Below are positions 9,546 to 48,767 of a stretch of 64,000 nt of DNA, piece by piece (the first letter of the stretch is position 1; each line of letters opens with the position of its first letter). The stretch is from Parcubacteria group bacterium GW2011_GWA2_47_26. Lineage in GTDB: Bacteria; Patescibacteriota; Patescibacteriia; GWA2-47-26. Where the stretch lies: the NCBI GenBank assembly GCA_001001705.1, contig LCOG01000005.1, positions 40,714 through 104,713 on the forward strand, read 5' to 3'. The notes beneath the pieces are model-generated. The model ran no database searches. It saw nothing but the letters and a program-made list of their open reading frames with translations, and was not told where the DNA came from. The translations under genes and the position numbers were made by a program.

Positions 9546-10934
9546 AGAATTTTGCAGGTAAATAAATATCTTTATCGGCGGGCGGGGGCAGAGGCGTATG
9601 TTTTGGATTGGGCAGAGCTTTTGATAAAGCATGGGCAGGAGACGGGGCTTTGGGGAACAGAGGCTTTTCCTTGTCATTCTGAAGGAGCGCAGCGACTGAA
9701 GAATCCCGTCCATAAAGGTACGGGATCCTTCGCTAGCGCTCAGGATGACGTAGTGATATTTAATGATTTACTTGTAGAGGAACGTCATTTTGACCAGCGC
9801 GAGGGATTTTGGCGAGACATTAAAAAAGTCGGACACATGATTTGGTCGTGGGAGAGCGTGCGGAAATTTGAAGAGGTTTTGCAAAGGTTTAAACCGGACA
9901 TTGTGCACATACATAATATTTACCACCATATTTCTCCTTCAATCTTGCCGATGGCCAAACGGTTCGGGGTGCCGGTGGTCATGACGGTGCATGATTATCA
10001 TCTTATTAACCCGAATTACAATTTGTATGATCATGGGGAAATTTGCGAGCGCAAGGGTATTTACGCGATCGCGCATAAATGCATAAAAGATTCGTACGCC
10101 GCAAGTTTTGCGGATGTTTTGGAATGGGGCATACATAAGATGCTGCGGGTTTATGATAATAATGTGGCGCGGTATGTTGTGCCGACGGAGTTCGTGAAGG
10201 AGAAGTTGGTGGAGCAGGGGATAGGGGGAAGACACATTGAAGTAGTGCCTCTTCCGGTCATTCTGAACGGAGTGCAGTGTAGTGAAGAATTTCGTGCGAA
10301 TGCACGCGATGGTCGCACATACATGCGGGATTCTTTGCTCCCTGCGGTCGCTCAGAATGACAGTAATGGCGGTTACGTTCTCTTTGCCGGACGGATAACG
10401 AGGGAGAAAGGGGTTTATTTGTTGCTGGAGATGGCTAAAAAGTTGCCAGAGATGCAGTTTAAGATTGCGGGGACGGGGCCGGAGCTCACGAATGTAAAAT
10501 TAAAAATTAAAAATGAAAAATTGGAGAATATTGAGTTGTTGGGATTTTTGGAAAAGGCGGAGTTGCGGGAGATTATTGATGGCGCGCGTTTGGTTGCAGT
10601 GCCGTCGCTTTGGCCCGAGCCGTCGCCTTTTGCGGTATTAGAAGCGCAGGCTGCAGGCAAAGTGGTTCTGGCCTCGCGGATTGGCGGAATTCAGAATTTG
10701 ATTGAAGATGGAAAGACGGGATTTTTGGTGACCATACGAAAGTACGAAAATACTACGAAAAGTACGAAATTATTTAAAGATTGGGTAGACAAGGTGCGAG
10801 AAATATATTACGATGAAACGCGGCTTAAACAAATTGGTCAGGCCGCGCGAGAATACATTAAAAAGACGCATGATCCGGAAGAACACTATGCCGCGTTATT
10901 CAAGGTGTATAAGGAAGTAACACGGAATGACTAA
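9543..10934 (+). CDS. Glycosyltransferase family 4
   Basis: PSLWPEPSPFAVLEAQAAGKVVLASRIGGIQNLIEDGKTGFLV. Carries two in-frame family-A elements and one family-D half array. Confidence 0.85.
   Translation: MRILQVNKYLYRRAGAEAYVLDWAELLIKHGQETGLWGTEAFPCHSEGAQRLKNPVHKGTGSFASAQDDVVIFNDLLVEERHFDQREGFWRDIKKVGHMIWSWESVRKFEEVLQRFKPDIVHIHNIYHHISPSILPMAKRFGVPVVMTVHDYHLINPNYNLYDHGEICERKGIYAIAHKCIKDSYAASFADVLEWGIHKMLRVYDNNVARYVVPTEFVKEKLVEQGIGGRHIEVVPLPVILNGVQCSEEFRANARDGRTYMRDSLLPAVAQNDSNGGYVLFAGRITREKGVYLLLEMAKKLPEMQFKIAGTGPELTNVKLKIKNEKLENIELLGFLEKAELREIIDGARLVAVPSLWPEPSPFAVLEAQAAGKVVLASRIGGIQNLIEDGKTGFLVTIRKYENTTKSTKLFKDWVDKVREIYYDETRLKQIGQAAREYIKKTHDPEEHYAALFKVYKEVTRND
9673..9749. repeat. Family-A element, in frame in GT4
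   Basis: Encodes CHSEGAQRLKNPVHKGTGSFASAQDD. Confidence 0.85.
10257..10361. repeat. Family-A element, in frame in GT4 (105 nt = 35 codons)
   Basis: Encodes VILNGVQCSEEFRANARDGRTYMRDSLLPAVAQND. Confidence 0.85.
10733..10770. repeat. Family-D TACGAAA array (one arm only), in frame in GT4
   Basis: CATACGAAAGTACGAAAATACTACGAAAAGTACGAAAT encodes IRKYENTTKSTK. Confidence 0.7.
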
Positions 10935-11049: not shown

Positions 11050-13095
11050 ATGTCTCGCTTTAGGTTATTCTATGCGCTGGTTTTAGTTTTAATAGGAGTG
11101 ATAGTGCCGCAAGCGAGCTTTGCTTTGCCTGAAGTGAAGACGACTTTTCCGCGTTTGGCCAATTATTTTTTACATTGGACTATTTCCGAGGAAGAGGCGC
11201 GGGAGCTTAAAAAATGGGATTTGCTTATTTTGGACATGGAAGTGCAGGAACGTAGTCGGCGCGAACTCCAGCTTTTACGGGAACTCAATCCAAACATTAT
11301 TCTGCTCGCGTACATAACATCTGTTGAGATTAGGAAAGACGCATTAACGCTTCCGGAGGGCGTTGCGCCTTTGCGCAGGAAGTTAGCAACGTCATATTTA
11401 AAACCAGAATGGTTTATTACCGATGTCGGAGGTTCACGTCGCTCGTTTTGGCCCGGAACTTGGATTGTCAATATTACTGATCGGGCGCCGCTTATAGAGG
11501 GGCGGCGCTGGCAAGATGTTTTACCGCAATTTGTGAGCAATGAAATTCTGGATACGGGTCTTTGGGACGGGATTTTTTATGATAATGGCTGGGAGGATCC
11601 TTCGCATCATACTGGAGCAGGCCTTGATTTAGATCGCGATGGTCAGGCGGAGTCGCGAGAGAGTGTTAATGCAGTTTGGCAAGAAGGGATGCAGAAGCTC
11701 CTTGAAAATACTTCTCGTCTTTTTGGCGATCGCGCGCTTATCATGATGAATGGAAATCTTGCCTATGCGTCGCAAGTGAATGGTCTTATGTTTGAGTATT
11801 TTCCCCGTCAAGGTTGGGCGCAGACCATGGCAAAGTATAAGACGTCAATCTCTCAAAATCATCCTCCAGCGCTGCCGGTGGTAAATACCATAGGCCGCAC
11901 GGGTAAGCCTGATGATTATTCCCAGTTTCGGTATGGACTTACCAGCACGTTTTTGGATGATGGATTTTATAGTTTTGATTCAGGACTGACTGATCACGGT
12001 CAGACTTGGTGGTATGATGAGTATGAGGCATTTTTAGGTGAGCCTCTAGGGGAGGCGAAAAAGAGGGACGTTTCTAATTTTGCGCGGCAAAATTTAGAAA
12101 CGTCTCCTTTTTCGGCCGGACTTTGGCGTCGAGATTTTGAAAAAGGTATTGCTTTTGTCAATTCGAGTACGACTACCCAGACTGTAGAGTTGCCTATAGA
12201 AATAGAGAAATTGCGCGGCAGACAGGATTCGGTGGTAAATGATGGTTTGATTACGCGGCGTTTGCAAATTGAGGCGCAGGACGGCTTGATAGTATTGCGG
12301 CCTTTGCAAACAATTGTGGGCGCGCCGTTTGAGAATGGAGTTTTTGCGCGGGTGTTTAACGCGGCGGGAGAAGTTGCGCGCGCGGGATTTTTTGCGCTGG
12401 ACCGTCGGGAGGAGAGCGGAGTGGTTATGGCGAGTATGGATTTAGATGGAGACGAAAGGGTAGAAAAGGTAAAGAGAGAGGAGGGGGGAATAGTAAAAAT
12501 CATTTTTGGCAGTGGTCAGCAAACTAGTTTTGCGCCATTTGGCGCAGGGGCGCGGAGCGAGGAGATTAGTTTGGCTTTAGGGGATGTTACGGGCGAAGGT
12601 GTAAAAGAGATTGTGGTTTCATATCGCGGGCAAGTCAGGATTTATCGGATTGATGGGACGCTTTTGGTGACGCCATTTTTTCCTTTTGGCTCCCGTTATC
12701 GGGGCGCTGTGAATGTGGCAGTAGGGGATTTGAATAGGGATGGGTTTTCGGAAATTGTGGTTGGCGCTGGTGCGGGCGGCGGGCCATTCGTGCGGATTTT
12801 TTCCGGAGAAGGACGGTTGCTCTCGGGCGGATTTTTTGCGTATGATCCGAGGTTTCGGGGCGGGGTGCGGGTGGCCGTGGGGGATGTTGATGATGACGGG
12901 CAGGCGGAAATTGTAACAGGGCCGGGTATTGGCGGCGGGCCGCAAATTCGGATTTTTAATAATAAGGGGCAGGCGGCTGGGCCGGGTTTTTTTGCCTTTG
13001 ACCAAAGCGCGAGAGGCGGAGTAATACCAATAGTAGCGGATGCAGATGGGGATGGAAGGAATGAAATTTTGGCAGTAACTAGAGAAGCAGAGTAG
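11050..13095 (+). CDS. Secreted protein: N-terminal putative glycoside-hydrolase-like (TIM-barrel, GHL-type) domain plus C-terminal FG-GAP/VCBS repeats
   Basis: Signal peptide MSRFRLFYALVLVLIGVIVPQASFA. LANYFLHWTISEEEARELKKWDLLILDMEV region. C-terminal repeats GDLNRDGFSEIVVGAGAGGGPFVRIF / GDVDDDGQAEIVTGPGIGGGPQIRIF. One in-frame family-B element. Confidence 0.6.
   Translation: MSRFRLFYALVLVLIGVIVPQASFALPEVKTTFPRLANYFLHWTISEEEARELKKWDLLILDMEVQERSRRELQLLRELNPNIILLAYITSVEIRKDALTLPEGVAPLRRKLATSYLKPEWFITDVGGSRRSFWPGTWIVNITDRAPLIEGRRWQDVLPQFVSNEILDTGLWDGIFYDNGWEDPSHHTGAGLDLDRDGQAESRESVNAVWQEGMQKLLENTSRLFGDRALIMMNGNLAYASQVNGLMFEYFPRQGWAQTMAKYKTSISQNHPPALPVVNTIGRTGKPDDYSQFRYGLTSTFLDDGFYSFDSGLTDHGQTWWYDEYEAFLGEPLGEAKKRDVSNFARQNLETSPFSAGLWRRDFEKGIAFVNSSTTTQTVELPIEIEKLRGRQDSVVNDGLITRRLQIEAQDGLIVLRPLQTIVGAPFENGVFARVFNAAGEVARAGFFALDRREESGVVMASMDLDGDERVEKVKREEGGIVKIIFGSGQQTSFAPFGAGARSEEISLALGDVTGEGVKEIVVSYRGQVRIYRIDGTLLVTPFFPFGSRYRGAVNVAVGDLNRDGFSEIVVGAGAGGGPFVRIFSGEGRLLSGGFFAYDPRFRGGVRVAVGDVDDDGQAEIVTGPGIGGGPQIRIFNNKGQAAGPGFFAFDQSARGGVIPIVADADGDGRNEILAVTREAE
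12056..12114. repeat. Family-B palindrome, in frame in CDS
   Basis: CGAAAAAGAGGGACGTTTCTAATTTTGCGCGGCAAAATTTAGAAACGTCTCCTTTTTCG encodes KKRDVSNFARQNLETSPFS. Confidence 0.9.
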
Positions 13096-13124
13096 GCAGA
13101 GTAAGCACTAAGCAGATTAAGCAT
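13086..13124. repeat. Family-C 9-mer array (AGCAGAGTA/AGCAGATTA units), left arm flanking the four-helix-bundle gene
   Basis: AGCAGAGTAGGCAGAGTAAGCACTAAGCAGATTAAGCA. It contains the stop codon of the upstream CDS. Confidence 0.8.
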
Positions 13125-13133
13125 TCTTGATGT

Positions 13134-13508
13134 ATGGCCAATATTAGAACATTCCATGATCTTGACGTGTGGCGGAAAGCACACGAGCTTGTATTATTGG
13201 TATATAAAATTACTAAAACATTTCCCAAAGAGGAGTTATATGTGTTGGTTGCACAAATCCGTCGTGCCGCTATATCCATTACCGCGAATATAGTAGAAGG
13301 ATTCCGAAGAAAAACACTTAAAGATAGCTTAAATTTTTATCGGATGGCAGATGCCTCATTAGAAGAACTTAAATATCATATTTTTCTTTCACATGACCTT
13401 GGGTATATTTCGGATAGTGAATATAATGTTATAGTTTCTCTATGCGAAGAAGTGGGAAAGTTGCTTACGCGATGGATTCAGAGTCAAGAAACGTATCTCA
13501 ATGCTTAA
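13134..13508 (+). CDS. Four-helix-bundle protein (23S rRNA intervening-sequence protein family)
   Basis: 124 aa. FHDLDVWRKAHELVLLVYKITKTFPKEELYVLVAQIRRAAISITANIVEGFRR...ASLEELKYHIFLS is characteristic of this family. Confidence 0.85.
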   Translation: MANIRTFHDLDVWRKAHELVLLVYKITKTFPKEELYVLVAQIRRAAISITANIVEGFRRKTLKDSLNFYRMADASLEELKYHIFLSHDLGYISDSEYNVIVSLCEEVGKLLTRWIQSQETYLNA

Positions 13509-13541
13509 TTTGCTTAATCTGCCTACTCTGCTTAATCTGCC
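13502..13541. repeat. Family-C 9-mer array, right arm (inverted relative to 13086-13124)
   Basis: TGCTTAATTTGCTTAATCTGCCTACTCTGCTTAATCTGCC. It overlaps the stop codon of the four-helix-bundle gene. Confidence 0.8.
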
Positions 13542-13547
13542 AAATTT

Positions 13548-14381
13548 ATGGAATTTATCTGTAAGCACGATCCGTCTGATCCAAACCACTTGATTTGCGA
13601 ATCAAAGCGGTCGCCGGTTTTTGAATGGCTGCGTGGGCGATGGCAACAGTTTTATTGTGCGGGTCCGAGTTGTCCAACGCATAAGGCTTACACGCATTTG
13701 GTTGTGGATATTTTTTTGGTAATTGCGGTTGCGGGATTGGTGGTGGCGAACCTGGTTTTTTTGTCAAGGGGGAGGGGTGGGGATAAAGTCGGCTCAAACA
13801 GTCCTCGCGCACAAACTGCGACTCTGGCCACTATCCGTGGGGGAGAAGAAGAGGTGGAAAAATCCCAGCCGAATCTTTTTAGTGGTGAAGAGAATAAAGA
13901 GGAAAGTCTACAGTATTCTGGACAATCGGAGTTATTTTTAGAAGGAGAGGCGTTGTATTTTTCAATGGAGGGCGAGCAATTGGGACGGGGGCCGTGGCCA
14001 TTGCAAGCGGGGCAGGAAACTAAAATCAAGGTGTTTTTGCGGGCGAATACTGGTAGAGATTTTGAAGGTGTGGTCGTAAGCGGGAAATTGGGGCCAAATG
14101 CGGCCTGGACGGGTTTTGCGCCGCAAGGTCGCGGGCTAGTTTATGAACCGGCAAGCCAGATAGTGCGCTGGCGAATTACTTGGTCAGATAGGCCTGGTTC
14201 TAGCACGAGGGCGGTGTTTGAAGTGGCGATTACCCCGGATTTTAGCCAAATTCAAGAGGGCCAGGTTTTAATTATGGAGGATTTGAAAATACGAGCGAAA
14301 AGTCTGGTTAGTGGCGAGAGTAAGACGGTACTTGCCCCAGATGTGATTTTGGACATGACAACTGGAAGTGTGTTAAAATAA
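13548..14381 (+). CDS. Membrane-anchored hypothetical protein (single TM plus beta-rich ectodomain)
   Basis: 277 aa. TM HLVVDIFLVIAVAGLVVANLVFL. I recognise no diagnostic motif. It lies directly upstream of the giant surface protein gene. Confidence 0.5.
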   Translation: MEFICKHDPSDPNHLICESKRSPVFEWLRGRWQQFYCAGPSCPTHKAYTHLVVDIFLVIAVAGLVVANLVFLSRGRGGDKVGSNSPRAQTATLATIRGGEEEVEKSQPNLFSGEENKEESLQYSGQSELFLEGEALYFSMEGEQLGRGPWPLQAGQETKIKVFLRANTGRDFEGVVVSGKLGPNAAWTGFAPQGRGLVYEPASQIVRWRITWSDRPGSSTRAVFEVAITPDFSQIQEGQVLIMEDLKIRAKSLVSGESKTVLAPDVILDMTTGSVLK

Positions 14382-21076: not shown

Positions 21077-21138
21077 GTGGAAAAAGAGAGCACTTCTAAA
21101 TTTTGCAAAGCAAAATTAGAGGCGTTCTCTTTTTCCAC
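21077..21138. repeat. Family-B palindrome (intergenic variant)
   Basis: GTGGAAAAAGAGAGCACTTCTAAATTTTGCAAAGCAAAATTAGAGGCGTTCTCTTTTTCCAC, near-identical to 591-648. Confidence 0.9.
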
Positions 21139-21394: not shown

Positions 21395-21410
21395 ATTAAT
21401 TGAGTTATTT

Positions 21411-21474
21411 AAGCAGAGTAAGCAGATTAGGCAGATTAAGCAATTGTTTAGTACATACTCTGCTTAATCTGCTG
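21411..21474. repeat. Family-C 9-mer hairpin ('empty', no gene in loop)
   Basis: AAGCAGAGTAAGCAGATTAGGCAGATTAAGCA-ATTGTTTAGTACA-TACTCTGCTTAATCTGCTGAC. Confidence 0.8.
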
Positions 21475-21590
21475 ACTAAAGTCTACTATAGCGTAGACTT
21501 TTATAGGTGTCAAGTCCATTTTTCTTGCTTTCATATCTAGTATTGTGCTATATTTGTTGTAACTTTTCTGTATTTTTAGCGACATCTAAT

Positions 21591-27083: not shown

Positions 27084-27125
27084 AACAAAGACCCCCCGAT
27101 GGCCATCGGGGGGTCTGTTGTTTTT
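27084..27125 (+). terminator. Intrinsic terminator
   Basis: CAACAAAGACCCCCCGATGGCCATCGGGGGGTCTGTTG followed by TTTTT. Confidence 0.8.
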
Positions 27126-27178
27126 AGAATGGGTTTGATATTATGTGGCTAGGCCACAAAGCTTTGTGGCCTAAATAC

Positions 27179-27249
27179 GGCTGCGACTCGTTGAAAATTA
27201 CTCGAAATAGCTCTGCTATTCCTGCGTATTTTCAACTTCGTCTCGCTCG
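27179..27249. repeat. Family-K three-tier hairpin (GGCTGCGACT...CTTCGTCTCGCT)
   Basis: GGCTGCGACTCG-TTGAAAAT-TACTCGAAATAGCTCTGCTATTCCTGCGT-ATTTTCAA-CTTCGTCTCGCTCG. Conserved base with covarying upper stems versus 35680-35759. Confidence 0.65.
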
Positions 27250-27287
27250 TATTTTGAAAGAACTATCTCAAAAATGAAAGAGATTAT

Positions 27288-27887
27288 TTGCGGTTTTATA
27301 CCTCGCTTTTTGTTTTCAATGATGAGAATTATCGCGGAGTACTTGGGCTCGATGTAAATGCAGTATTACATCAGTTTTGTGACCAAGTCACAAGTATAGG
27401 TGACTTGGTCACAAAACGCAAACCACTTGTCAATATAGTAAGTTTTTGCTTAATGCCTAACCATTTTCATTTTCTACTTGAACAAATTGCTGAACAAGGG
27501 GTTCCTCGTTTTATGCACCGTATTGCGTTAGGGTATGCTGAATATTTTAATAAGAAAAATGATCGCACTGGCCGTTTATTCGAGGGGCCATTTAAAGCAG
27601 TGCTTGTTCAGCGCGACGCTCAACTAGAACATTTGCCACGCTATATTCACTTGAATGCTTTAGATCTTATTACTGATTTAAATTGGGGGGAGGGGAAGAT
27701 TGCCGATTGGGCTCGCGCGGAAAAATTTTTAGAAGAATATTCCTGGTCCAGTCATGGGATGTATCTCAATAAACCGCAGTTGTTGCCGGTTATTAAAAAA
27801 GCAATAGTAGAACAAATATTTGATACACCAGAAAAATACATCAATTTTTTAAAACAGTGGCTAGGCCACTGCGAAATTGTGGCCTAG
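27288..27887 (+). CDS. REP-associated tyrosine transposase (RAYT, IS200/IS605-like Y1 HUH family), apparently 5'-truncated
   Basis: HUH motif CLMPNHFHFLLEQ and Tyr motif LPRYIHLNALD. The only available start is TTG, with an in-frame TGA at 27255-27257. The usual N-terminal ~30 aa are missing. Confidence 0.7.
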   Translation: MRFYTSLFVFNDENYRGVLGLDVNAVLHQFCDQVTSIGDLVTKRKPLVNIVSFCLMPNHFHFLLEQIAEQGVPRFMHRIALGYAEYFNKKNDRTGRLFEGPFKAVLVQRDAQLEHLPRYIHLNALDLITDLNWGEGKIADWARAEKFLEEYSWSSHGMYLNKPQLLPVIKKAIVEQIFDTPEKYINFLKQWLGHCEIVA

Positions 27888-27915
27888 CCACATAATCGTG
27901 GTATAATATAAAACT

Positions 27916-31213: not shown

Positions 31214-32524
31214 ATGAAGATTGCCTATTTAACCTGCGTTTATCCTCCATATCCGGGCGGGATTGGGGTGGCGGCGGCGGGGATGGCCAAGGAGATGGCC
31301 TCGCGCCGCGGATACGCCGTGGAAGTGTTTACGCCGCGGTATAGAAGGGAATTAGGAATAAGGAATCAGGAATCAGGGGTTGAGATGCATTATCTTAAGC
31401 CGTTGCTGTCATATGGCAAGGCTGCGATTTTGCCGCAGCTGCTTTGGCGCTTGCGCAGATTTGATATTGTGCATGTGTATTATCCGTTTTTTGGCGGCGC
31501 TGAAGTTGCGGTTTTGGCGCGTAAGTTGTGGAAATTCAAATTGATTTTACATCATGAGATGGATGTGGTTGGAGAGGGTGAAAAGAGGGACGTTCCCCTT
31601 TTTGCGTCAAAAAGGGGAACGTCCCTCTTTTTCACATGGCATACTCGCAAGATCTTGCCGTGGATTATAAAAAATACGGATTGTGTTTGCGTTTTGTCCG
31701 ATGACTATTTTATGAATTCTGATTTTGGGCGTTTGTATAAAAAAATGGGAGAGAGATTTCCAACTTGGCGGGTTGTGCCCAATGGGGTAGATGTAGAGTT
31801 ATTCAGGCCTACAAATTTTTGTCATCCTGAGCCCACGCACCAGAGCGAAAGCTTGGTGCGGGGTAGACTCCGCGAAGGATCTCGAGATTCTCCGTCCGCC
31901 GTGGGCGGACGAAGAATGACAGAACTGCCGACCATTTTATTAGTGGCAGGATTGGATCGAGCGCATTATTTTAAAGGCGTCCATGTATTGATTGAGGCTT
32001 TGCGCATTCTCAAAAAACGAGGAGTAAATTTTATGTGTAAGATAATTGGCGACGGAGATATGCGCAAAGTATATGAAGAGCAGGCAAAACAAGTCGGCCT
32101 GAAAAATAGGGACGTTTCTAATTTTGCCGCACAAAATTTAGAAACGTCCCCTTTTTCTATAGTATTTGTTGGACTCGTACCGCATGATGAGCTGCCGGTT
32201 CATTATCGGAATGCTACGGTACTAGTTGTTCCTTCCACTGGACGTATTGAAAGTTTCAGTATTGTTGCGGCAGAAGCCCAGGCTTGCGGCTTGCCAGCGA
32301 TTGTTTCGGATTTGCCCGGAGTGCGGGTTACAATTGAGGACGGAGTGACTGGATTGAAAGTTAAGCCGGGCGATCCGGAGGACTTGGCTAATCAACTGGA
32401 GATACTTTTAATGCAGAAAGATTTAACACGTAAAATGGGTGAGGCGGGGCGAAAAAGGGCAGAGGAGTTTTATAGTTGGACCGGGATTGGAAATAAAATG
32501 GAGGAAATTTATAAGAAGGTATGA
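31214..32524 (+). CDS. Glycosyltransferase family 4
   Basis: ESFSIVAAEAQACGLPAIVSDLPGVRVTIEDGVTGLKV. Carries four in-frame repeat elements (E, B-variant, A, B). Confidence 0.85.
   Translation: MKIAYLTCVYPPYPGGIGVAAAGMAKEMASRRGYAVEVFTPRYRRELGIRNQESGVEMHYLKPLLSYGKAAILPQLLWRLRRFDIVHVYYPFFGGAEVAVLARKLWKFKLILHHEMDVVGEGEKRDVPLFASKRGTSLFFTWHTRKILPWIIKNTDCVCVLSDDYFMNSDFGRLYKKMGERFPTWRVVPNGVDVELFRPTNFCHPEPTHQSESLVRGRLREGSRDSPSAVGGRRMTELPTILLVAGLDRAHYFKGVHVLIEALRILKKRGVNFMCKIIGDGDMRKVYEEQAKQVGLKNRDVSNFAAQNLETSPFSIVFVGLVPHDELPVHYRNATVLVVPSTGRIESFSIVAAEAQACGLPAIVSDLPGVRVTIEDGVTGLKVKPGDPEDLANQLEILLMQKDLTRKMGEAGRKRAEEFYSWTGIGNKMEEIYKKV
31347..31379. repeat. Family-E heptamer tandem (GGAATYA units), in frame in GT4
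   Basis: GGGAATTAGGAATAAGGAATCAGGAATCAGGGG encodes ELGIRNQESG. Confidence 0.7.
31578..31635. repeat. Family-B variant palindrome, in frame in GT4
   Basis: GTGAAAAGAGGGACGTTCCCCTTTTTGCGTCAAAAAGGGGAACGTCCCTCTTTTTCAC encodes GEKRDVPLFASKRGTSLFF. Confidence 0.85.
31821..31920. repeat. Family-A element, in frame in GT4
   Basis: Encodes CHPEPTHQSESLVRGRLREGSRDSPSAVGGRRMT. Confidence 0.85.
32101..32157. repeat. Family-B palindrome, in frame in GT4 (57 nt = 19 codons)
   Basis: GAAAAATAGGGACGTTTCTAATTTTGCCGCACAAAATTTAGAAACGTCCCCTTTTTC encodes KNRDVSNFAAQNLETSPFS. Confidence 0.9.
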
Positions 32525-33900: not shown

Positions 33901-35672
33901 AAGTGCGAGCATGGAACGCGTTTTTTGCCATGGTTTTGATATTAGCTTTTTTTGTACTGTTATATTTGCCATTGTCATCGCCGGTTGGCGTTTTTAATAC
34001 TCCGGATGAAAATGCGAATTATTTTTTTGCCAAAACTTTTGCGGAGCGCGGCGAGCTTTCTGTCATAGAACCTTTGGAGCCATTGGTTGATAACGTAATT
34101 CATCCGCGCGGCGTTAATGTGGTCAGGGGATTTCTAGTGCCAGAAAGTTTTTTAGGTTTGCCTATTTTTTATGGTGGGATGATTAGGTTGCTCGCTTATA
34201 CAGGCCAATGCCAAGCAGGAAGTGCGGCGTTGCTTACGCTTGATTGCGGCTTGCCAGCTATCTTGGCTTTTTTGAATATTGTTGCCCTGTTTTGCCTTTT
34301 GAAAATATTTAAATTCTTTTTTGAGAAGACAATTGCAAGGTTGGCTTTGCTTTTTGTGCTGACAAATTCGATATTTCTTTACTGGAGCGGCCGGCCATTT
34401 ATGCATAATATTCTTTTTTTAGATCTCGTTGTAATCGGTTGGGGGATTTTGCTTGTAACTGTGAGGTCAAAAATTGATACGCGCTGGGATATGGTTGCTG
34501 GTTTGATTTTGGGTGCGGCTATAGCCGTACGCCCGGCGGAGATTGTTTGGGTGTCGATTAGCACGCTAGCTATTATTTTGATGAGTGAATTCAGCTATGC
34601 TTCAGCAGACTCACCTAGCCGAAAGCGGCGGATTTTAGCGCTTGGTCAGCGCTGTTTCAAGGCAGCTTTGGGCGGATTGATTATTCTGGTCTCTTTGTTA
34701 TTTTTTAACCGTGAGCTTTACGGGAATTTTTTCGGGAGCGGCTATAGCACAACCGAGAGCAATATTGTTGTTGCAGAAAGCGCAGTGCCGCAGTTGGCGC
34801 GCGTTTCTTTGGCAGAACAAATATTTCTTCCGTTTGGATTTCATCCTCTTGAGGCATTTAGCCGTTTTAGCAAATACGCGCTAGGTGGTTTATGGTGGTA
34901 TACGGCGCCGATGCTTCTGGGGGCGGTGATTGTTATGGCGCTGTGGTGTGTTAAAGGGGCACAGGCCGCGGAACAGAAAGCGAGACGATATGCTTTGACT
35001 TGGCTCATGGTTTCCATGTATTTGATTATTTATTATGGGGCATTTAGGGTCGAGATTTTTGCTGATCCGCGACATCCCCTAGGGTCCTCAATTGGTACGC
35101 CGTATCTGCGTTACTGGCTGCCGATTTTTGTTTTTGGCGCGCCATTTGCGGCTATGTTTTTACTGTTCTTTTATAGGCTTATCATTTCGATCTTAAGGAG
35201 AGCAACCCCTTACACCCAAGTAAAGAGATTCCTCACTGCGTTCGGAATGACAGTTTTGGTGGTTTTAATGACAGTACTTTCTTTGCGTGCAGTTTTTTGG
35301 CAAGGAACAGAAAGCTGGCTCAATATTAAAAATAATCTTTTCCAGTTTGCTGAAATTCGCGAGAGGGCTGAACGCACGACAAACGAGAACACAATCTTTT
35401 TTGTGCCGCATTTTGCTGATCGCATTTATTTTCCAAAAAGGCGCGTAGTGGTTGATGTAGCGGGAAAAGACACAATACAAATTTTGGGTGCACTAGTTAA
35501 TAAAGACTACCCGGTATTTTGGCTGCGGGGGAGAGGGGAGATTTTGCTCAAAGAGACTGATTTGAAAAAGGCAGGATTACGTTTATTGCGCAGGTTTGAT
35601 GTTGATCCCAAAGGCAAGATTTATCAGGTGATAAAGGGCCTGTTGCCGAATACCATTTCTACTGCAAGGTAA
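33897..35672 (+). CDS. GT-C-fold (PMT_2/ArnT-like) polytopic membrane glycosyltransferase candidate
   Basis: 591 aa, >10 TM. First-loop motif NTPDENANYFFAKTF, matching SPDEMANAFFIRSV in the paralogue at 37870..39501. The C-terminal ~12 codons derive from repeat J. Confidence 0.55.
   Translation: MKVRAWNAFFAMVLILAFFVLLYLPLSSPVGVFNTPDENANYFFAKTFAERGELSVIEPLEPLVDNVIHPRGVNVVRGFLVPESFLGLPIFYGGMIRLLAYTGQCQAGSAALLTLDCGLPAILAFLNIVALFCLLKIFKFFFEKTIARLALLFVLTNSIFLYWSGRPFMHNILFLDLVVIGWGILLVTVRSKIDTRWDMVAGLILGAAIAVRPAEIVWVSISTLAIILMSEFSYASADSPSRKRRILALGQRCFKAALGGLIILVSLLFFNRELYGNFFGSGYSTTESNIVVAESAVPQLARVSLAEQIFLPFGFHPLEAFSRFSKYALGGLWWYTAPMLLGAVIVMALWCVKGAQAAEQKARRYALTWLMVSMYLIIYYGAFRVEIFADPRHPLGSSIGTPYLRYWLPIFVFGAPFAAMFLLFFYRLIISILRRATPYTQVKRFLTAFGMTVLVVLMTVLSLRAVFWQGTESWLNIKNNLFQFAEIRERAERTTNENTIFFVPHFADRIYFPKRRVVVDVAGKDTIQILGALVNKDYPVFWLRGRGEILLKETDLKKAGLRLLRRFDVDPKGKIYQVIKGLLPNTISTAR
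35225..35251. repeat. Family-A half element (right arm only), in frame
   Basis: GAGATTCCTCACTGCGTTCGGAATGAC encodes RFLTAFGMT. Confidence 0.55.
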
Positions 35673-40407: not shown

Positions 40408-41451
40408 ATGAGACTCTTGGTTTGCGGCGGGGCTGGGTTTATCGGCTCCAATTTTATCAAATATATTTTAGAAAGATATCCTGATTACAGGGTTGTTAAT
40501 TATGATAAATTGACATATGCCGGGAATTTGGAGAATTTGCAGGATATTGTCTCCCTACGGGAGATCCCCCGCGGGGGGAAAAATAATTCGCGGTACACTT
40601 TTGTGCAGGGCGATATTGGCGATCTAGATAAGCTGAACCAAGTCATTGCTGACCATAAAATTACGCATGCTATTTCTTTTGCCGCGGAGACTCATGTGGA
40701 TCGGTCTATTCATGGCGGATGCAAAGATTTTGTTTTGACCAACACACTGGGCGTGCAAATGCTTTTGGACGCTGTACGGTTTAATAAATTAGAAAAATTC
40801 ATAAATGTTTCCACGGATGAGGTGTATGGAGCTCTAGGGCTTCACGAAGACAGAAAGTTTACTGAAAGTACGCCAGTCTGGCCTAATATGCCTTATGCCG
40901 CGGCCAAGGCTGGAGGGGATTTGATGTGCAATGCCTATTTTGTTACTCATAAGACGCCGGTGATTGTTACGCATTGTTCCAATAATTACGGCCCGTATCA
41001 ATTTCCAGAAAAACTCATACCTTTTTTTATCTTTCGTTTACTGAATAATCAAAAAGTTCCAGTTTATGGGGACGGCCTTTATGTGCGCGATTGGATTCAG
41101 GTGAGGGATCACGCCAGCGCGCTGGATTTACTTTTGCACAAAGGTGTCGCGGGTGAAATTTACAATATCGGCGTGGATAACGAACGGAGTAATTTGGAAG
41201 TGACTAAAATGATTTTGCAAATTATGGGCAAAGGCGAGGATATGATTGAATATGTGACGGATCGGCCGGGGCATGATCGCCGTTATGCCATTGATGCTTC
41301 GAAAATTCAACAGCTGGGCTGGCAGCCGGTTTATACGCGCGATAAATTTGAGCAAGGTCTGCGGGAGACAGTGGAATGGTATTTAAACAATCGCGCATGG
41401 GTGGAGAAATTGCAAAAAAGACAAGCGGAGTTGAATCCGCATATTAAATAG
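40408..41451 (+). CDS. rfbB: dTDP-glucose 4,6-dehydratase
   Basis: LVCGGAGFIGSNFIKYIL, VNYDKLTYAGNLENL, STDEVYG and YAAAKAGGD. Small hairpin-coded insert SLREIPRGG at ~40549-40580. Confidence 0.9.
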   Translation: MRLLVCGGAGFIGSNFIKYILERYPDYRVVNYDKLTYAGNLENLQDIVSLREIPRGGKNNSRYTFVQGDIGDLDKLNQVIADHKITHAISFAAETHVDRSIHGGCKDFVLTNTLGVQMLLDAVRFNKLEKFINVSTDEVYGALGLHEDRKFTESTPVWPNMPYAAAKAGGDLMCNAYFVTHKTPVIVTHCSNNYGPYQFPEKLIPFFIFRLLNNQKVPVYGDGLYVRDWIQVRDHASALDLLLHKGVAGEIYNIGVDNERSNLEVTKMILQIMGKGEDMIEYVTDRPGHDRRYAIDASKIQQLGWQPVYTRDKFEQGLRETVEWYLNNRAWVEKLQKRQAELNPHIK

Positions 41452-41527
41452 CAGAGTAAGCAGATTAAGCACTAGGCAGAGTAAGCAAGTGCTTAGTACT
41501 TACTCTGCCTACTCTGCATAATCTGCT
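41450..41527. repeat. Family-C 9-mer hairpin ('empty')
   Basis: AGCAGAGTAAGCAGATTAAGCACTAGGCAGAGTAAGCA-AGTGCTTAGTAC-TTACTCTGCCTACTCTGCATAATCTGCT, between rfbB and the cupin gene. Confidence 0.8.
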
Positions 41528-41535
41528 ATCATTGT

Positions 41536-41952
41536 ATGTTTAAAGAATTTCAAATTTTTACCATCAAGAAAATAGAGACGCCGAAGTTTGTTATGAGTCC
41601 GGTGGAGCTGAAAGAATATGTTGATTTTGAAGTCAAGAGAGCGTATTTCATTACTAAACCAGTTGCGCAGACCGGAGCGCATTGTCATAAGATAGAGGAA
41701 GAGTTTTTTATTTTGGTGCAGGGGAGTTGCACGGCGGTGATCGATCGCGGGCAGGGTTTGGAAGAGATTGCTATGAATGGACCGACTAGCGCTATGTATG
41801 TGCCGGCTTTCGTTTGGCATCATTTTAAAGATTTTTCGCCGGATGCAATTTTGCTGGCTTTGAGTTCCACCAATTATAGTCCGGACAGGAGCGATTATGT
41901 TGAGGATTATGAGGAGTTTAAGAAAGCGAGCCCCTATTATGCAGCAGATTAA
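41536..41952 (+). CDS. WxcM/FdtA-like cupin (dTDP-4-keto-6-deoxy-sugar 3,4-ketoisomerase family)
   Basis: 138 aa. FEVKRAYFITKPVAQTGAHCHKIEEEFFILVQGSCTAVIDRG resembles FdtA/QdtA-type cupins. The stop codon lies in a family-C repeat. Confidence 0.6.
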   Translation: MFKEFQIFTIKKIETPKFVMSPVELKEYVDFEVKRAYFITKPVAQTGAHCHKIEEEFFILVQGSCTAVIDRGQGLEEIAMNGPTSAMYVPAFVWHHFKDFSPDAILLALSSTNYSPDRSDYVEDYEEFKKASPYYAAD

Positions 41953-42012
41953 GCAGATTAGGCAGAGTAAGCAGCTGGTTTTGCTTAATCTGCTTAGTGC
42001 TTAATCTGCTTA
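41941..42012. repeat. Family-C 9-mer hairpin ('empty')
   Basis: GCAGCAGATTAAGCAGATTAGGCAGAGTAAGCAGC-TGGTTT-TGCTTAATCTGCTTAGTGCTTAATCTGCTTA. Confidence 0.8.
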
Positions 42013-44515: not shown

Positions 44516-45445
44516 ATGGATCTATCAATAATTATTGTCAGTTGGAATGTTAAAGATAAACTGCGGGAGTGTTTGATGTCGGTTGAGGAGACGATGGCGA
44601 CTCCTCGTGACCATGCCACGGCGGAAAGTGGCCTGGTCACTCCCGCCGCTTTAACCTATGAGGTGTTTGTTGTGGATAATGCCTCAAAAGATGGAAGCGT
44701 GCAGATGGTGGAGAAGGAGTTTCCGGAGGCGCATCTTATTGCGAACAATTTTAATGCTGGTTTTGCCAAAGCCAATAATCAGGCGATTCGATTGTCGCAG
44801 GGGCGGTATGTTTTGCTTTTGAATCCGGATATGCGGCTGTTGGGTGGTGGGGAACAAGCCCACACTCTACAGGGCATGGTGCGATTTATGGATGAGGAGA
44901 GAAACAGGAAGGTAGGAGTGGCGGGGTGTTGGCTTGTGAATGCGGCAGGCGAGACCGTACCTCATGTCCGCCGTTTTCCCACAATCAAAGATCAACTCGC
45001 CGTTCTCCTTAAGGTGCCTCATCTTTTTCCAGTAGTTCTGAATTTGTATATGATGAAAGATTTTGATTATTCAAAAGAGGCGCGGGTGGATTCGATTCGC
45101 GGATCATTTTTTATGATACGGCGCGAAGTGCTTGATAAAATCGGCTTGCTTGATGAAGGTTTTTTTATCTGGTTTGAGGAAGTTGATTTTTGCAAGCGCG
45201 CGATTGAAGCGGGCTTTGAGGTGGCCTACACGCCGAGGGCTAGGTGTGTGGATTATGTGGGACAGAGTTTTAGACAGGTGCGCTTGTATCCGAAGCAAAA
45301 GATGATGACGCGGAGCATGTTATATTATTTTAAGAAGCACCATCCTTGGTGGCAGTACCGGATTTTGTGGATATTGCGGCCGTTGGCGCTTGCTGCAGCA
45401 TGGGTGGGGGATAGCTTGCACATGCAGGCAAAAAGAGTGACGTGA
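44516..45445 (+). CDS. Glycosyltransferase family 2
   Basis: LSIIIVSWNVKDKL...VFVVDNASKDGS...NNFNAGFAKANNQAI. One in-frame REP hairpin. Confidence 0.85.
   Translation: MDLSIIIVSWNVKDKLRECLMSVEETMATPRDHATAESGLVTPAALTYEVFVVDNASKDGSVQMVEKEFPEAHLIANNFNAGFAKANNQAIRLSQGRYVLLLNPDMRLLGGGEQAHTLQGMVRFMDEERNRKVGVAGCWLVNAAGETVPHVRRFPTIKDQLAVLLKVPHLFPVVLNLYMMKDFDYSKEARVDSIRGSFFMIRREVLDKIGLLDEGFFIWFEEVDFCKRAIEAGFEVAYTPRARCVDYVGQSFRQVRLYPKQKMMTRSMLYYFKKHHPWWQYRILWILRPLALAAAWVGDSLHMQAKRVT
44607..44640. repeat. REP-type hairpin (RAYT family F), in frame in GT2
   Basis: GTGACCATGCCAC-GGCGGAAA-GTGGCCTGGTCAC encodes RDHATAESGLVT. Confidence 0.75.
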
Positions 45446-45530: not shown

Positions 45531-46637
45531 ATGCCGAAGTTATCAGTTCACTTAGTAACTTGGAACGGCGTAAAATATATTCCTTATCTTTTTGAGTCTT
45601 TGCGTAAGCAGAGTTTTAAAGATTGGGAGCTTTTGGTCATAGATAATGGGTCAGGGGATGGGACGAGTGAGGCGATTGAGAAAGAGCTGCAGAGTTTCCC
45701 TGCGCCTGCGCGATTTGTGCGCAATGAAAAGAATCTGGGATTTGCGCATGGACACAATCAAGCCGTGCACGCAACGCAAGGCGAGTATATTCAGCTTCTT
45801 AATCAAGATATGTATCTTGCGCAGGATTATTTTGAGAAGATTGTGGCCATGATGGAGGAGCATCCCGAGGCCGGGGCAGGGCAGGGGGTGTTGTTGAAAT
45901 GGGACTTTGGCAAAGCGTCTAGCGTCGAGCGTTTAGCGTCTAGTAATAGTTTGACTGATATTGTTGATACAATGGGGCTTAAAGTTATGCGTAATAGAAG
46001 GGTGGCAGATTGGAGGACGGGGAAATTATTAAACAATGTCATTGCGAGCGGAGCGAAGCAATCTCATAGGTGGGGTGAAGAGATCGCCACGACACCTTCG
46101 GTGTCTCGCGATGACGAGGTATACGAAGTCTTTGGTGTTTCTGGCGCCTTGCCGATTTATCGCCGCAAGGCGGTTGAGCAGGTCGCTTTTGAGGGCCAGA
46201 TGTTTGATGAGGATTTTTTTAGTTATAAGGAAGATGTGGATTTAGCCTTTAGATTGCGTGCCGCGGGATGGAAAGCGTATGTGGATCCGCAAGCGCAAGC
46301 TTGGCATGATCGCAGCGCGGCTGGGCCGCGTGAGATGTCTGATAAAGCGGCGCTTCAAAATCGGAAAACCAAGTCGGCTTTTGTAAATTATCATTCTTAC
46401 AAAAACCATGTCATGGTCTTGTTGAAAAATGAAAATCTTGCTAATTTTGCAAGAGACTGGCCGTGGATTTTATGGTACGAATTTAAAAAGTTTGTTTATC
46501 TTTTGCTATTGGATCGTGCGACATTGAAAGGATTAAAAGAGATAAAGAGGCTCCGGCCGCGTACGATGCAAAAGCGTAAGTTTATCACGAGTCATTATAA
46601 ATTAAAGCCGGAGGAGATGAGAAAGTGGTTCTGCTAA
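45531..46637 (+). CDS. Glycosyltransferase family 2
   Basis: LSVHLVTWNGVKYIPYLFESLRKQSFKDWELLVIDNGSGDGT...NLGFAHGHNQAV. One in-frame family-A element. Confidence 0.85.
   Translation: MPKLSVHLVTWNGVKYIPYLFESLRKQSFKDWELLVIDNGSGDGTSEAIEKELQSFPAPARFVRNEKNLGFAHGHNQAVHATQGEYIQLLNQDMYLAQDYFEKIVAMMEEHPEAGAGQGVLLKWDFGKASSVERLASSNSLTDIVDTMGLKVMRNRRVADWRTGKLLNNVIASGAKQSHRWGEEIATTPSVSRDDEVYEVFGVSGALPIYRRKAVEQVAFEGQMFDEDFFSYKEDVDLAFRLRAAGWKAYVDPQAQAWHDRSAAGPREMSDKAALQNRKTKSAFVNYHSYKNHVMVLLKNENLANFARDWPWILWYEFKKFVYLLLLDRATLKGLKEIKRLRPRTMQKRKFITSHYKLKPEEMRKWFC
46038..46115. repeat. Family-A variant element, in frame in GT2 (78 nt = 26 codons)
   Basis: GTCATTGCGAGCGGAGCGAAGCAATC...GTGTCTCGCGATGAC encodes VIASGAKQSHRWGEEIATTPSVSRDD. 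Confidence 0.85.
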
Positions 46638-46638
46638 T

Positions 46639-47499
46639 ATGTACGACATCGTAACAGTGACAGTCAATTACAAGATGAAAGACAAGGTCTTAGCGATGTT
46701 GCGGTCGCTTTTTCGCGATACGGAAAATAGGGACATTTCTAATTTTGCTGCGCAAAATTTAGAGACGTCCCTATTTCCTCGGGTGCAGTCGGTGGTTGTT
46801 GATAATGATTCCCGCGATAGCATTAAGGATGCACTAGTAAAAGAGTTTAGTCAGCGGATTATTTTTATTGATGCTGGTGCGAATATCGGATTTGGGCGCG
46901 GTAATAATTTGGCGCTTAAAAAATTTGAGGCAAAATATTATTTCATTGCCAACCCAGATTTAGTATTCATGGAAAATCAGCCGGACACAGTGGCGCGGTT
47001 GTATAAATTTATGGAAGACAATCCTAAAATTGGCATTGTTGCGCCGCGTTTGGTTTTGAAAAGTGGGGTTACCCAACCATCCTGCATGCGCTTCCCGCGC
47101 TTTTTTGATCAGCCGATTTACCGTCTTGGTCTTCATAAAAAATACGAGTGGGCGCGCCGGAGAGTGGAGTGGCTGCTTATGAAAGATTTTGACCACACAA
47201 AGAGCCAGCCAATTGATTGGGCGACTGGTGCGGCGTTTTTTGTGCGCGGAGATATGTTAAAGAAGGTCGGGTTTTTTGATGAGAGATACTTTATGTATTT
47301 TGAAGATTGCGATTTATGCCGGACATTCTGGTCGCGCGGCTGGCCAGTCTACTATAAAGGCGATATCGTAATCCAACACGGTCACGAGCGCGCCTCGGCA
47401 AAAGTGCCGGGGTTGAAATCAATACTTTTAAATCCATTGACGCGCATACATTTAAAGAGTTTGGTGAAGTATGCATGGAAGTGGAGAGGGAGGAATTAA
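46639..47499 (+). CDS. Glycosyltransferase family 2
   Basis: IVTVTVNYKMKDK...VVVDNDSRDS...NIGFGRGNNLAL. One in-frame family-B element. Confidence 0.85.
   Translation: MYDIVTVTVNYKMKDKVLAMLRSLFRDTENRDISNFAAQNLETSLFPRVQSVVVDNDSRDSIKDALVKEFSQRIIFIDAGANIGFGRGNNLALKKFEAKYYFIANPDLVFMENQPDTVARLYKFMEDNPKIGIVAPRLVLKSGVTQPSCMRFPRFFDQPIYRLGLHKKYEWARRRVEWLLMKDFDHTKSQPIDWATGAAFFVRGDMLKKVGFFDERYFMYFEDCDLCRTFWSRGWPVYYKGDIVIQHGHERASAKVPGLKSILLNPLTRIHLKSLVKYAWKWRGRN
46722..46778. repeat. Family-B palindrome, in frame in GT2
   Basis: GGAAAATAGGGACATTTCTAATTTTGCTGCGCAAAATTTAGAGACGTCCCTATTTCC encodes ENRDISNFAAQNLETSLFP. Confidence 0.9.
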
Positions 47500-47500
47500 T

Positions 47501-48650: not shown

Positions 48651-48767
48651 TAGCAAGTAAGCAGAGTAAGCAGAGTAAGCAGAGTAAGCAGAGTAAGCAG
48701 ATTAAGCAGATTAAGTACTAAGCAAATTGCCTAATCTGCCTAATCTGTCTATTGCTTAATTTGCTTA
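48651..48767. repeat. Family-C 9-mer hairpin, longest copy (AGCAGAGTA x4, AGCAGATTA x2, then the inverted arm)
   Basis: TAGCAAGTAAGCAGAGTAAGCAGAGTAAGCAGAGTAAGCAGAGTAAGCAGATTAAGCAGATTAAGTACTAAGCAAATTGCCTAATCTGCCTAATCTGTCTATTGCTTAATTTGCTTA. It fills the whole intergenic spacer up to the next ATG. Confidence 0.85.

Follow-up and report, generated by a model that had tools for sequence, protein, structure and literature searches.

A probably REPtron-like Y1 transposase unit with cognate palindromes and in-frame hairpins in glycosyltransferase genes of a Parcubacteria group bacterium

We describe a small unit in a 64,000-nucleotide (64-kb) stretch of a contig of Parcubacteria group bacterium GW2011_GWA2_47_26, which we call the window; the host is a groundwater bacterium of the candidate phyla radiation (CPR), one of whose hypothetical proteins is 100% identical to the ORF product described below, and the nearest named relatives are Candidatus Uhrbacteria. 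The unit, at 27140-27896, holds what remains of a RAYT-like Y1 HUH transposase gene (RAYT, REP-associated tyrosine transposase; REP, repetitive extragenic palindrome), with one palindrome at each end and one inside the gene, and two hairpins of the same design lie inside two glycosyltransferase family 2 (GT2) genes. The evidence below makes it probable that the unit is REPtron-like: a chromosomal, vertically inherited RAYT-type Y1 HUH gene with its cognate palindromes, with dispersed hairpins and with a fresh deletion. Searches for copies and hairpins covered the window. The features are as follows, ORF denoting an open reading frame.

27140-27173, unstranded: left terminal repeat with a truncated REP doublet, ATTAT-GTGGCTAGGCCAC-AAAGCTTT-GTGGCCTA, the second arm ending after 8 nt
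27174-27267, plus strand: 5' leader running from the left repeat to where the start codon used to be, including an imperfect hairpin at 27190-27236 ('family K')
27258-27887, plus strand: remaining frame of the RAYT-like Y1 HUH transposase (Pfam Y1_Tnp; tblastn with the intact sister protein)
27268-27274, plus strand: deletion junction, 107 nt absent relative to the sister, between two TCAAAA direct repeats
27288-27887, plus strand: mechanically called ORF with a TTG start, 199 aa, containing PNHFHFLLEQ and RYIHLNALD
27374-27417, plus strand: internal in-frame hairpin, GTTTTGTGACCAAGTCAC-AAGTATAG-GTGACTTGGTCACAAAAC, 18-bp stem
27462-27470 and 27642-27644, plus strand: HUH codons and catalytic Tyr codon, respectively
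27857-27896, unstranded: right REP doublet with terminal repeat, GTGGCTAGGCCAC-TGCGAAATT-GTGGCCTAGCCAC-ATAAT, encoding WLGHCEIVA and the stop codon
27885-27887, plus strand: stop codon TAG, inside the right hairpin arm
44607-44640, plus strand: sister hairpin in the GT2 gene 44516-45445, GTGACCATGCCAC-GGCGGAAA-GTGGCCTGGTCAC, one stem mismatch, translated RDHATAESGLVT
47847-47880, plus strand: sister hairpin in the GT2 gene 47471-48646, GTGGCCAAGCCAC-AACGGAAA-GTGGCTTGGCCAC, perfect 13-bp stem, translated SGQATTESGLAT

A preliminary description of this locus had reported the HUH and catalytic Tyr motifs of a Y1 transposase in ORF 27288-27887. Both are present, and the ORF matches Pfam PF01797 Y1_Tnp over profile positions 40-119 (E 7.7e-8, 32.9 bits, cutoff 23), with H59, H61 and Y119 invariant in the homologue alignment. 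The intact sister protein, used as tblastn query, aligned through its residues 22-230 to 27258-27884 and revealed no second transposase copy in the window. Homologues are 220-240 aa long with the N-terminus MRxVxF..YHVYNRG. The AlphaFold model of an orthologue (P0003, pLDDT 91.6) has the E. coli TnpA_REP-REP complex 4ER8 as its closest structure (E 8e-5, TM 0.66 on target), ahead of the TnpA proteins of IS200, IS608 and ISDra2; the fold matches include 4ER8, 2XM3 and 2A6M. Searching the PDB with the single transposase sequence gave no match, and a profile search gave only marginal matches, to ISDra2 TnpA and 4ER8.

In order to place the protein within the known transposase branches, we compared its motifs, as inspected in the alignments, with Table 1 of PMC6006769. 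The motifs NHFH, LFEG or LFQG, YIHLNA or YIHLNP, and WSSH, together with the length of 220-240 aa, agree with the signature of subclass 2.1, which corresponds to Bertels group 1 and to the TIRYTs (with the TIRtron) of Di Nocera (PMC3733652, PMC6006769), and disagree with subclasses 2.2 (E. coli), 2.5 (Pseudomonas) and 2.4. On this motif comparison the protein would fit the second signature of the subclass 2.1/TIRYT branch. The likeness covers NHFH (NH[YF]H in the subclass), LFEG here and LFQG in homologues (FQ), YIHLNA/P (Y[IV]HLNP), the conserved 'SS' of the proximal tail (WSSH here) and the subclass median of about 238 aa; it extends to long terminal inverted repeats that can be self-complementary and to the small number of dispersed copies. 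Unlike in TIRYTs, the terminal repeats (ATTATGTGGCTAGGCCAC) do not contain the GGGGWSAS motif, and no helix-turn-helix (HTH)-like domain (Bac_DnaA_C, HTH_23 or HTH_28) was detected in the C-terminal tail, Pfam reporting only Y1_Tnp. The earlier designation as a RAYT holds in part: the gene encodes a Y1 HUH protein, has its own flanking palindromes and is single in the window, but with NCBIfam NF047646 (REP_Tyr_transpos), for which the cutoff is 80 bits, the reconstructed full-length protein reaches only 32, and its motifs fit those of TIRYTs better.

The sequences ATGTGGCTAGGCCAC / GTGGCCTAGCCACAT were found at the two ends of the unit. That the ORF is bracketed by inverted hairpin repeats had been noticed before; the perfect terminal inverted repeat is in fact 18 nt long (27140-27157 and 27879-27896), with two matches against 0.03 expected, at the ends only. 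The 13-mer design GTGRCCWWGNCAC was counted eight times (0.01 expected) and is confined to the RAYT unit, 44607 and 47847/47868; when the complete hairpin with a loop of 8 nt is required, there are three matches (0.00 expected), in agreement with the earlier report of this design at 44607-44640 and 47847-47880. The left doublet can alternatively pair as a perfect 10-bp stem, TAGGCCACAA/TTGTGGCCTA. The strongest hairpin of the design, which the preliminary description did not list, is the internal one: translated as CDQVTSIGDLVT / FCDQVTSIGDLVTK, it begins 71 nt upstream of the C-L-M-P-N-H-F-H codons, and the residues it encodes (62-73 in P0003) fall, in the model, in a loop of lower confidence that connects a helix to the HUH strand. 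Folded as single-stranded DNA, the hairpins are much more stable than shuffled controls: the energies were -20.4 kcal/mol (z -9.9) for 27370-27421 and -16.4 (z -7.1) for 27850-27898, and for the GT2 hairpins -17.6 (z -6.5) at 47840-47887 and -11.8 (z -3.4) at 44600-44647, the latter with its one stem mismatch.

Comparison with the orthologue contigs L002 and L006 shows how the palindromes relate to the gene. There they are complete (21-22 bp, ATTATGTGGCTA[A/G]GCCACCAA-NNN-TTGGTGGC[T/C]TAGCCACATAAT) and sit 20-26 nt 5' of the ATG and directly 3' of the stop codon, and the internal hairpin keeps its position with compensated changes. In the window and in the sister contig L001, the left palindrome stops after GTGGCCTA and is followed by a leader of about 125 nt that is missing from L002 and L006, and the reading frame merges with the right palindrome at the conserved Trp codon, so that WLGHCEIVA and the TAG stop are encoded by the hairpin. 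In different loci the arm is itself a mini-palindrome (GTGGC-tag-GCCAC, AGGGC-tta-GCCCT, TACATC-tccgggt-GATGTA), which makes the flanking hairpins doublets of inverted units, that is, miniature REPINs. A 'double foot' of GTGG start and CCAC end is seen in the flank and 47847 hairpins, and the internal and 44607 copies have GTGA. As for the GT[AG]G foot elsewhere, the L002/L006 stem runs past GTGG to ATTAT, and other palindromes of the clade lack such a tag.

The window and L001 are 100% identical at their shared bases, and the DNA alignment has one gap of 107 columns, missing in the window. The ATG and codons 1-26 (MRRVEFFPQHFYHVYNRGVDKRTIFQ) are lost and the frame is shifted, which explains the TGA in frame at 27255-27257 and the TTG as only start, both of which the preliminary description had pointed out correctly. 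Its statement that some 30 N-terminal residues are missing is borne out by alignment with the full-length homologues P0002-P0073 and by the sister DNA, which set the loss at 26 codons; the sister protein (P0002) is 99% identical to the window product. The first strand of the core sheet (beta1, residues 11-18 in the P0003 AlphaFold model) lies in the deleted part, and profile positions 1-39 of Y1_Tnp are unmatched by the window copy, the core of which is incomplete, whereas the sister copy is complete. With beta1 and the start codon deleted, the window transposase is, according to the model, very probably dead, and the inactivation earlier suspected as a possibility gains weight. A further proposal, that a family-K hairpin occupies the place of the N-terminus, did not stand: the hairpin at 27190-27236 (z -3.6, with no further copies in the window) belongs to a leader that is identical in the intact sister, upstream of its ATG, and the loss is a simple 107-nt deletion.

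It might be argued that the deletion is an assembly or consensus artefact of a 2015 metagenome-assembled genome and that the gene is intact in the cells, given that the genome is a metagenome bin and that the remainder of the unit agrees with the intact sister at every base. However, the junction lies between 6-nt direct repeats, as replication slippage predicts; a repeat of 6 bases is too short to confuse an assembler; and the sister is a different strain, its large surface protein having 1231 aa compared to 1255 aa in the window. We consider such an artefact very unlikely.

The two other hairpins of the design lie in ORFs 44516-45445 and 47471-48646, which both match Pfam Glycos_transf_2, and both hairpins are translated in frame as had been claimed. 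Allowing up to two mismatches, the flank arm GTGGCCTAGCCAC has eight matches in 64 kb against 0.82 expected, and those outside the flanks are all in the GT2 hairpins; a similarity above background, on which the preliminary description had made its reading depend, was thus observed. The GT2 hairpins agree with the flank arms at 12 and 11 of 13 positions, with the best agreement elsewhere in the 64 kb being lower. Their central base pair is compensated, CTA/TAG having become CAA/TTG or CAG/CTG, and one such base pair (CTA/TAG to CAA/TTG) is all that separates the 47847 hairpin from that of the flanks. Since TAG in the frame GT-GGC-TAG is a stop codon, the compensated change is exactly what an in-frame survivor needs, and the frame used yields small polar residues (G-Q/H-A-T ... 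G-L-A/V-T).

Both hairpins sit in variable loops and are extra compared to most homologues. The segment SGQATTESGLATNPSD is missing in most of the 26 homologues aligned to the 47471-48646 protein, and the 47847 hairpin lies in a 48-nt extra segment between AGTGAT and AGCGAT, a pair considered as a possible target-site duplication, the empty site being seen in L206, the closest hairpin-free orthologue. The 44607 hairpin is part of about 16 extra codons in a loop before the EVFVVDN strand; the 44516-45445 protein has 309 aa compared to a modal 286 aa in homologues without the segment, and L207 has an empty site, although its borders are too diverged to define those of the insertion. An orthologue 79% identical (L020) carries the same hairpin and loop as 44607 with a perfect stem, which suggests that this insertion is the older one and that the window copy has begun to decay. 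The L020 contig (CAZBUQ010000007.1) is labelled 'uncultured Gammaproteobacteria' but encodes the same GT2 as P0242, which bears the name Candidatus Uhrbacteria; probably the bin is mislabelled or the contig mis-binned.

L020 was found, together with L059 and L088, by scanning genome contigs for GTGRCNNNGYCAC-N8-GTGRCNNNGYCAC. The matches listed were for the most part chance ones in G+C-rich genomes, and only 21 of 150, known loci included, had at most one mismatch between the arms. Two of the matches, in other Uhrbacteria, have the same design in the same frame in unrelated genes, a ribonucleotide reductase-like ORF (L059, translated GQATVNSGQAT) and a 592-aa ORF (L088, GQATSVSGLAT). Counting orthologous sites once, there are five independent intragenic copies, all in the frame GT-GRC-CWN-GYC-AC. 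The use of one frame by all five has a chance of about 1 in 81, and the other two frames are also open; this would be consistent with selection for small polar residues over alternatives that contain Trp.

The surroundings of the gene speak to whether it is a resident or an insertion sequence (IS). It lies between a surface-protein gene and an S8 peptidase gene in the window, L001, L002 and L202 (the latter, with L002 and L006, being the orthologue contigs), and of these surroundings the short contig L006 has just the upstream terminator-like hairpin; the gene is found at one chromosomal site in at least four Uhrbacteria species. The order in L001 is the same as in the window: HTH gene, sigma factor, DUF5667, large surface protein, transposase gene, S8 peptidase, epimerase and GT4 genes. 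Between species, the transposase proteins are 64-75% identical, the peptidases 59-62% and the surface proteins 40-49%, and the transposase dN/dS is 0.06-0.07, with dS saturated. The unit of 750 bp has 39% G+C compared to about 50-52% in its flanks; low G+C (39-44%) is common to all orthologues, so that it characterises the gene as such and does not indicate that it came in recently.

One could instead regard the 750-bp unit as an autonomous, foreign IS of the IS200/IS605 type that was recently inserted and is now decaying, and its low G+C, its perfect 18-nt terminal inverted repeats and the membership of its protein in Pfam Y1_Tnp would suit this. The shared site in four species, next to neighbours only 40-62% identical and less conserved than the RAYT itself, argues against it, as do the low dN/dS, the low G+C of all orthologues and the single copy in the window. 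The protein, of about 230 aa, also departs from the IS200/IS605 TnpA (subclass 1.1), which has about 150 aa and occurs in several near-identical copies: its Tyr motif is YIHLN(A/P) (YIHLNA here) and not the Y---Q of IS200 TnpA (PMC6006769, Table 1), and the unit has the same palindrome at both ends, whereas the subterminal hairpins of IS200/IS605 differ between left and right. We find a recent IS extremely improbable. The gene behaves as a vertically inherited one, like a domesticated RAYT and not like an IS, as has been described for domesticated RAYTs (PMC5581495).

Two observations were made just upstream of the gene. A G+C-rich perfect hairpin at 27087-27118 of the window (AGACCCCCCGAT-GGCC-ATCGGGGGGTCT), followed by T-rich sequence, is likely the terminator of the surface-protein gene and is kept upstream of the RAYT in L001 and L006. 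In L202, positions 9640-9900 on the plus strand, just upstream of the orthologous RAYT, hold a fragment of a classical IS200-type TnpA C-terminus (...LWGGEFWSDGFYLSTVSERGNWKVVEQYV...), a second, decayed Y1 transposase at the same site.

The transposase clade is common in Uhrbacteria and other CPR bacteria. In order to have a wider view, we examined 80 loci from metagenome contigs with homologues 34-53% identical, and required hairpins to have a stem of at least 9 bp with at most one mismatch; sharing was tested on the hairpins only, as raw flank windows were inflated by conserved coding sequence. In 43 of the 80 loci the hairpins on the two sides of the gene have an 8-mer in common, compared to 2.9% between different loci and to 5 of 130 control ORFs of the same contigs, and the palindrome sequence is lineage-specific, each lineage having its own. 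A hairpin lies 40-110 nt upstream of the HUH (C-L-M-P-N-H-x-H) codons in 27 loci, and in 24 of these it matches its own flanks (1.4% across loci), at about 50-90 nt from the codons. The internal hairpin of L208 is unlike its flanks, and L202 and L209 have a single cognate arm at the internal position. The median distance from YHxxNRG to CLMPNH is 66 aa in loci with a detectable hairpin and 65 aa in those without, which fits a conserved site better than repeated fresh insertions. The idea of the internal copy as a simple fresh insertion was dropped, there being no added length. No orientation rule emerged when the loop sequences of left, internal and right hairpins were compared, direct and inverted arrangements being about equally frequent. 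In one more distant locus (L205, 11910-13251), a homologue (P0009) adjoins a reverse transcriptase (RVT_1) and a bAvd-like gene. Such a pairing is typical of diversity-generating retroelements.

These results bear on whether selection maintains the three hairpins of the unit as functional cis elements, such as binding sites for auto-regulation or for a recombination switch, so that they would be more than selfish insertions and the internal one an ancestral conserved site. The nearly fixed position among diverged loci, the equal region length, the compensated changes among the window, L002 and L006, and the single cognate arm kept in L202 and L209 all point in that direction. On the other hand, two thirds of the loci have no hairpin there at the thresholds used, the L208 hairpin differs from its flanks, no consistent orientation is seen, and the literature explains REPs in tnpA_REP as tolerated insertions in a peripheral loop (PMC6006769). 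We judge this explanation quite improbable, though it is compatible with a REPtron-like unit and not exclusive of it. A bolder possibility, which we put forward tentatively as an unlikely one, is that there is a large CPR clade of RAYT/TIRYT-like genes with an obligatory three-hairpin architecture (left, in frame ahead of the HUH strand, right) evolving in concert with enzyme specificity, in which the internal copy is a functional third site and no tolerated insertion, and the enzymes seed REPIN-like doublets into surface loops of envelope glycosyltransferases across Uhrbacteria. If so, the internal copy would serve auto-regulation or a self-directed recombination switch, and the glycosyltransferase loops would be hot spots of protein variation.

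In the REPtron-like explanation that we prefer, the repeat unit would be a 13-mer mini-palindrome, GTGGC-NNN-GCCAC, two inverted units of which would make a REPIN-like hairpin of 34-35 nt. One doublet would stand at each gene end and one in frame inside the gene, where it would encode a surface loop immediately ahead of the HUH strand. If the intact enzyme worked like E. coli TnpA_REP and IS608 TnpA, it would recognise the hairpins in single-stranded form and would cut and rejoin them via its tyrosine, and this would occasionally copy hairpins elsewhere, the ones at 44607 and 47847 being putative dispersed hairpins of the unit. Their persistence may be owed to tolerant glycosyltransferase loops and to the compensated change that removes the TAG stop. 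The transposase would have just been killed by a slippage-type deletion between the TCAAAA repeats and, because of that deletion, the hairpins of the unit would now be fossils. The causal link from the RAYT to the hairpins, including the earlier proposal that it is the likely driver of at least this hairpin family ('family F'), is suggested by their association and by the homologous E. coli system.

Several observations weigh against this explanation. The window has only two dispersed copies in 64 kb, both intragenic and coding (the whole family-F count outside the unit), whereas classical REPs number hundreds and are extragenic. The internal and GT2 hairpins differ from the flanks in the central triplet and at positions 4 and 10 and lack the ATTAT tail, and the two GT2 loops (CGGAAA) are closer to each other than to the flank loops. 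The score below the REP_Tyr_transpos cutoff and the equal length of the pre-HUH region with and without a hairpin belong here too. Finally, the window has at least four further hairpin families with in-frame copies in its genes and no RAYT nearby, which shows that an adjacent RAYT is not required for in-frame hairpins.

The last of these points leads to another account, in which the GT2 hairpins, and perhaps the internal one, are independent of the window transposase and represent general small palindromes that colonise permissive Uhrbacterial loops by another route: an enzyme encoded elsewhere, template switching or gene conversion. The likeness to the flanks would then reflect shared ancestry of the design or convergence. 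In other species the same GT2 loops hold quite different palindromes, the CGGAAA shared by the two GT2 loops is not shared with the flanks, the 44607 hairpin predates a species split (being present in L020), and no dispersed cognate palindromes were found in the 20 kb around the L202 orthologue. However, the 47847 arms are one compensated base pair from the flank arm and nothing else in the 64 kb is so close; the family-wide hairpins are locus-specific and track the gene; and dispersed cognate copies, intergenic and in frame in large ORFs, do occur in other loci (L133, L134, L136, L166, L181, L204), even if cognate hairpins around other homologues are rare, at roughly one per 30-50 kb. We consider independence unlikely.

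Comparison to the described systems shows likenesses to a REPtron along with some differences. RAYTs are known to be flanked by cognate REPs (Nunvar 2010, PMC2817692; Bertels & Rainey 2011, PMC3116915), each has its own REP family, and REPs inside tnpA_REP and other genes are documented (PMC6006769, PMC3733652, PMC5581495). The window transposase resembles these in being vertically inherited under purifying selection and present once in 64 kb, in having on both sides its own palindromes that co-vary with the gene between lineages, in the palindrome copies elsewhere in the window, in its closest solved structure (TnpA_REP with a REP hairpin) and, with respect to REPINs, in its doublets of inverted short palindromes that form a longer hairpin. 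It is unlike them, beyond the low family score and the copy number, in the W motif replaced by F (LFEG), the Tyr motif YIHLNA, a helical C-terminal extension in a protein of about 230 aa, the tiny doublet (34 nt) and the CPR host.

Genes of subclass 2.1 have been reported to have no REP-like structures nearby (Quentin 2018, PMC6006769), whereas in the window clade palindromic doublets stand on both sides in more than half of the loci, with a matching internal one in a third. In subclass 2.4, which corresponds to Bertels group 4, REPs occur in frame inside tnpA_REP, between the HUH and Tyr motifs, and 'double-foot' REPs of the form GT[AG]G...C[TC]AC are described (PMC6006769). The window gene is similar in that a REP lies in a peripheral loop without breaking the frame and in the GTGG...CCAC of the flank and 47847 copies, but its hairpin stands before the HUH motif at a nearly fixed position, and the signature of that subclass (WQ, YIxNNP, about 194 aa) does not fit the window protein. 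Intragenic palindromic repeats are also known as the Rickettsia RPEs and as the GTAG/CGTC REPs in genes of Opitutus terrae and others (PMC3733652). These, too, are short palindromes in frame in functional genes that add 12-30 residues in loops, genes killed by insertions having presumably been purged; unlike them, the window copies have a cognate transposase gene in the neighbourhood to which they can be linked, they have lost the stop codon of the master copy through a compensated base-pair change, and all five independent intragenic copies of the design use one reading frame. The earlier remark that in-frame REPs are unusual is only relatively true, as such cases are published (PMC3733652, PMC6006769) and other hairpin families of the window commonly lie in frame.

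Of the 26 window hairpins with a stem of at least 11 bp, 16 lie in ORFs of at least 200 aa. No Rfam match at gathering thresholds was found anywhere in the window. The other repeat families are as follows.

592-647, 12058-12113, 21081-21136, 31581-31631, 32102-32157, 46723-46778, 48023-48078, 62352-62407: hairpin family (A)nGGGACGTTTCTAATTTTG-N8-CAAAATTTAGAAACGTCCC(T)n, 8 copies
2752-2774, 2829-2851, 5944-5982, 6092-6169, 8089-8137: hairpin family CCCTCCCTTA-N3-TAAGGGAGGG
135-163, 1161-1212, 2948-2987, 6230-6281, 6803-6842, 7073-7112, 9698-9737, 35224-35252: repeat family GAAGAATCCCGT...ACGGGATCCTTCACTGCG..TCAGGATGACG (D7, D12, D13)
13077-13549, 21403-21488, 41441-41993, 48660-48757: intergenic 9-mer arrays AGCAGAGTA / AGCAGATTA and complements

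At least five copies of the first family are in frame as ...RDVSNF..QNLETS..., in a 683-aa ORF, in the GT4 31214-32524 (twice) and in the GT2 46639-47499 and 47471-48646; no cognate transposase for this family was found in the window. In other Uhrbacteria the second family is found in the orthologous GT2 loops, read there as PPQPSLTLRGG / PPLRVRGGRGS, and this occupation of the same loops by unrelated palindrome families in other species marks the GT2 loops as insertion hot spots. At the second GT2 insertion site (window 48014-48078; L206 1700-1760), L206 has CAAGGTCTGACCTC-TTTTCAG-GTGAGGTCAGACCTTG exactly where the window has its GGGACGTTTCTAA hairpin. The repeat-encoded peptides VIASGAKQSHRWGEEIATTPSVSRDDE and SRDSPSAVGGRRMTE were seen in glycosyltransferases at 46040-46120 (GT2 45531-46637) and 31887-31917 (GT4 31214-32524), and the GT2 homologue P0259 has a near-identical peptide at a different loop. 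The third family is concentrated in the first 10 kb of the window, and the 9-mer arrays often form inverted blocks (D3/D6; I2, I17, I25).

Nothing illustrates better than RAYT/REPIN systems how a mobile element can turn into a long-term, vertically inherited bacterial resident. To our knowledge, work on them has dealt almost exclusively with Proteobacteria and Cyanobacteria, and in full-text searches we came across no paper that treats RAYT/REP systems of CPR bacteria or Patescibacteria. REPs in frame within genes, and within RAYT genes themselves, have been published before; new here are the host group, a protein branch reported without REPs, the fixed position of the internal hairpin ahead of the HUH motif and the very low copy number. 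If our reading is correct, the locus extends RAYT/REPIN systems to the reduced genomes of CPR bacteria. The window strain with its freshly deleted gene and the sister with the intact one, otherwise identical over the aligned locus, would be a natural matched pair for enzyme-dependent hairpin turnover. The fixed internal hairpin and the stop-removing compensated change may give clues to target recognition and to the survival of repeats inside genes. For annotation, the lesson is that many odd loop insertions in CPR glycosyltransferases may be translated palindromic repeats.

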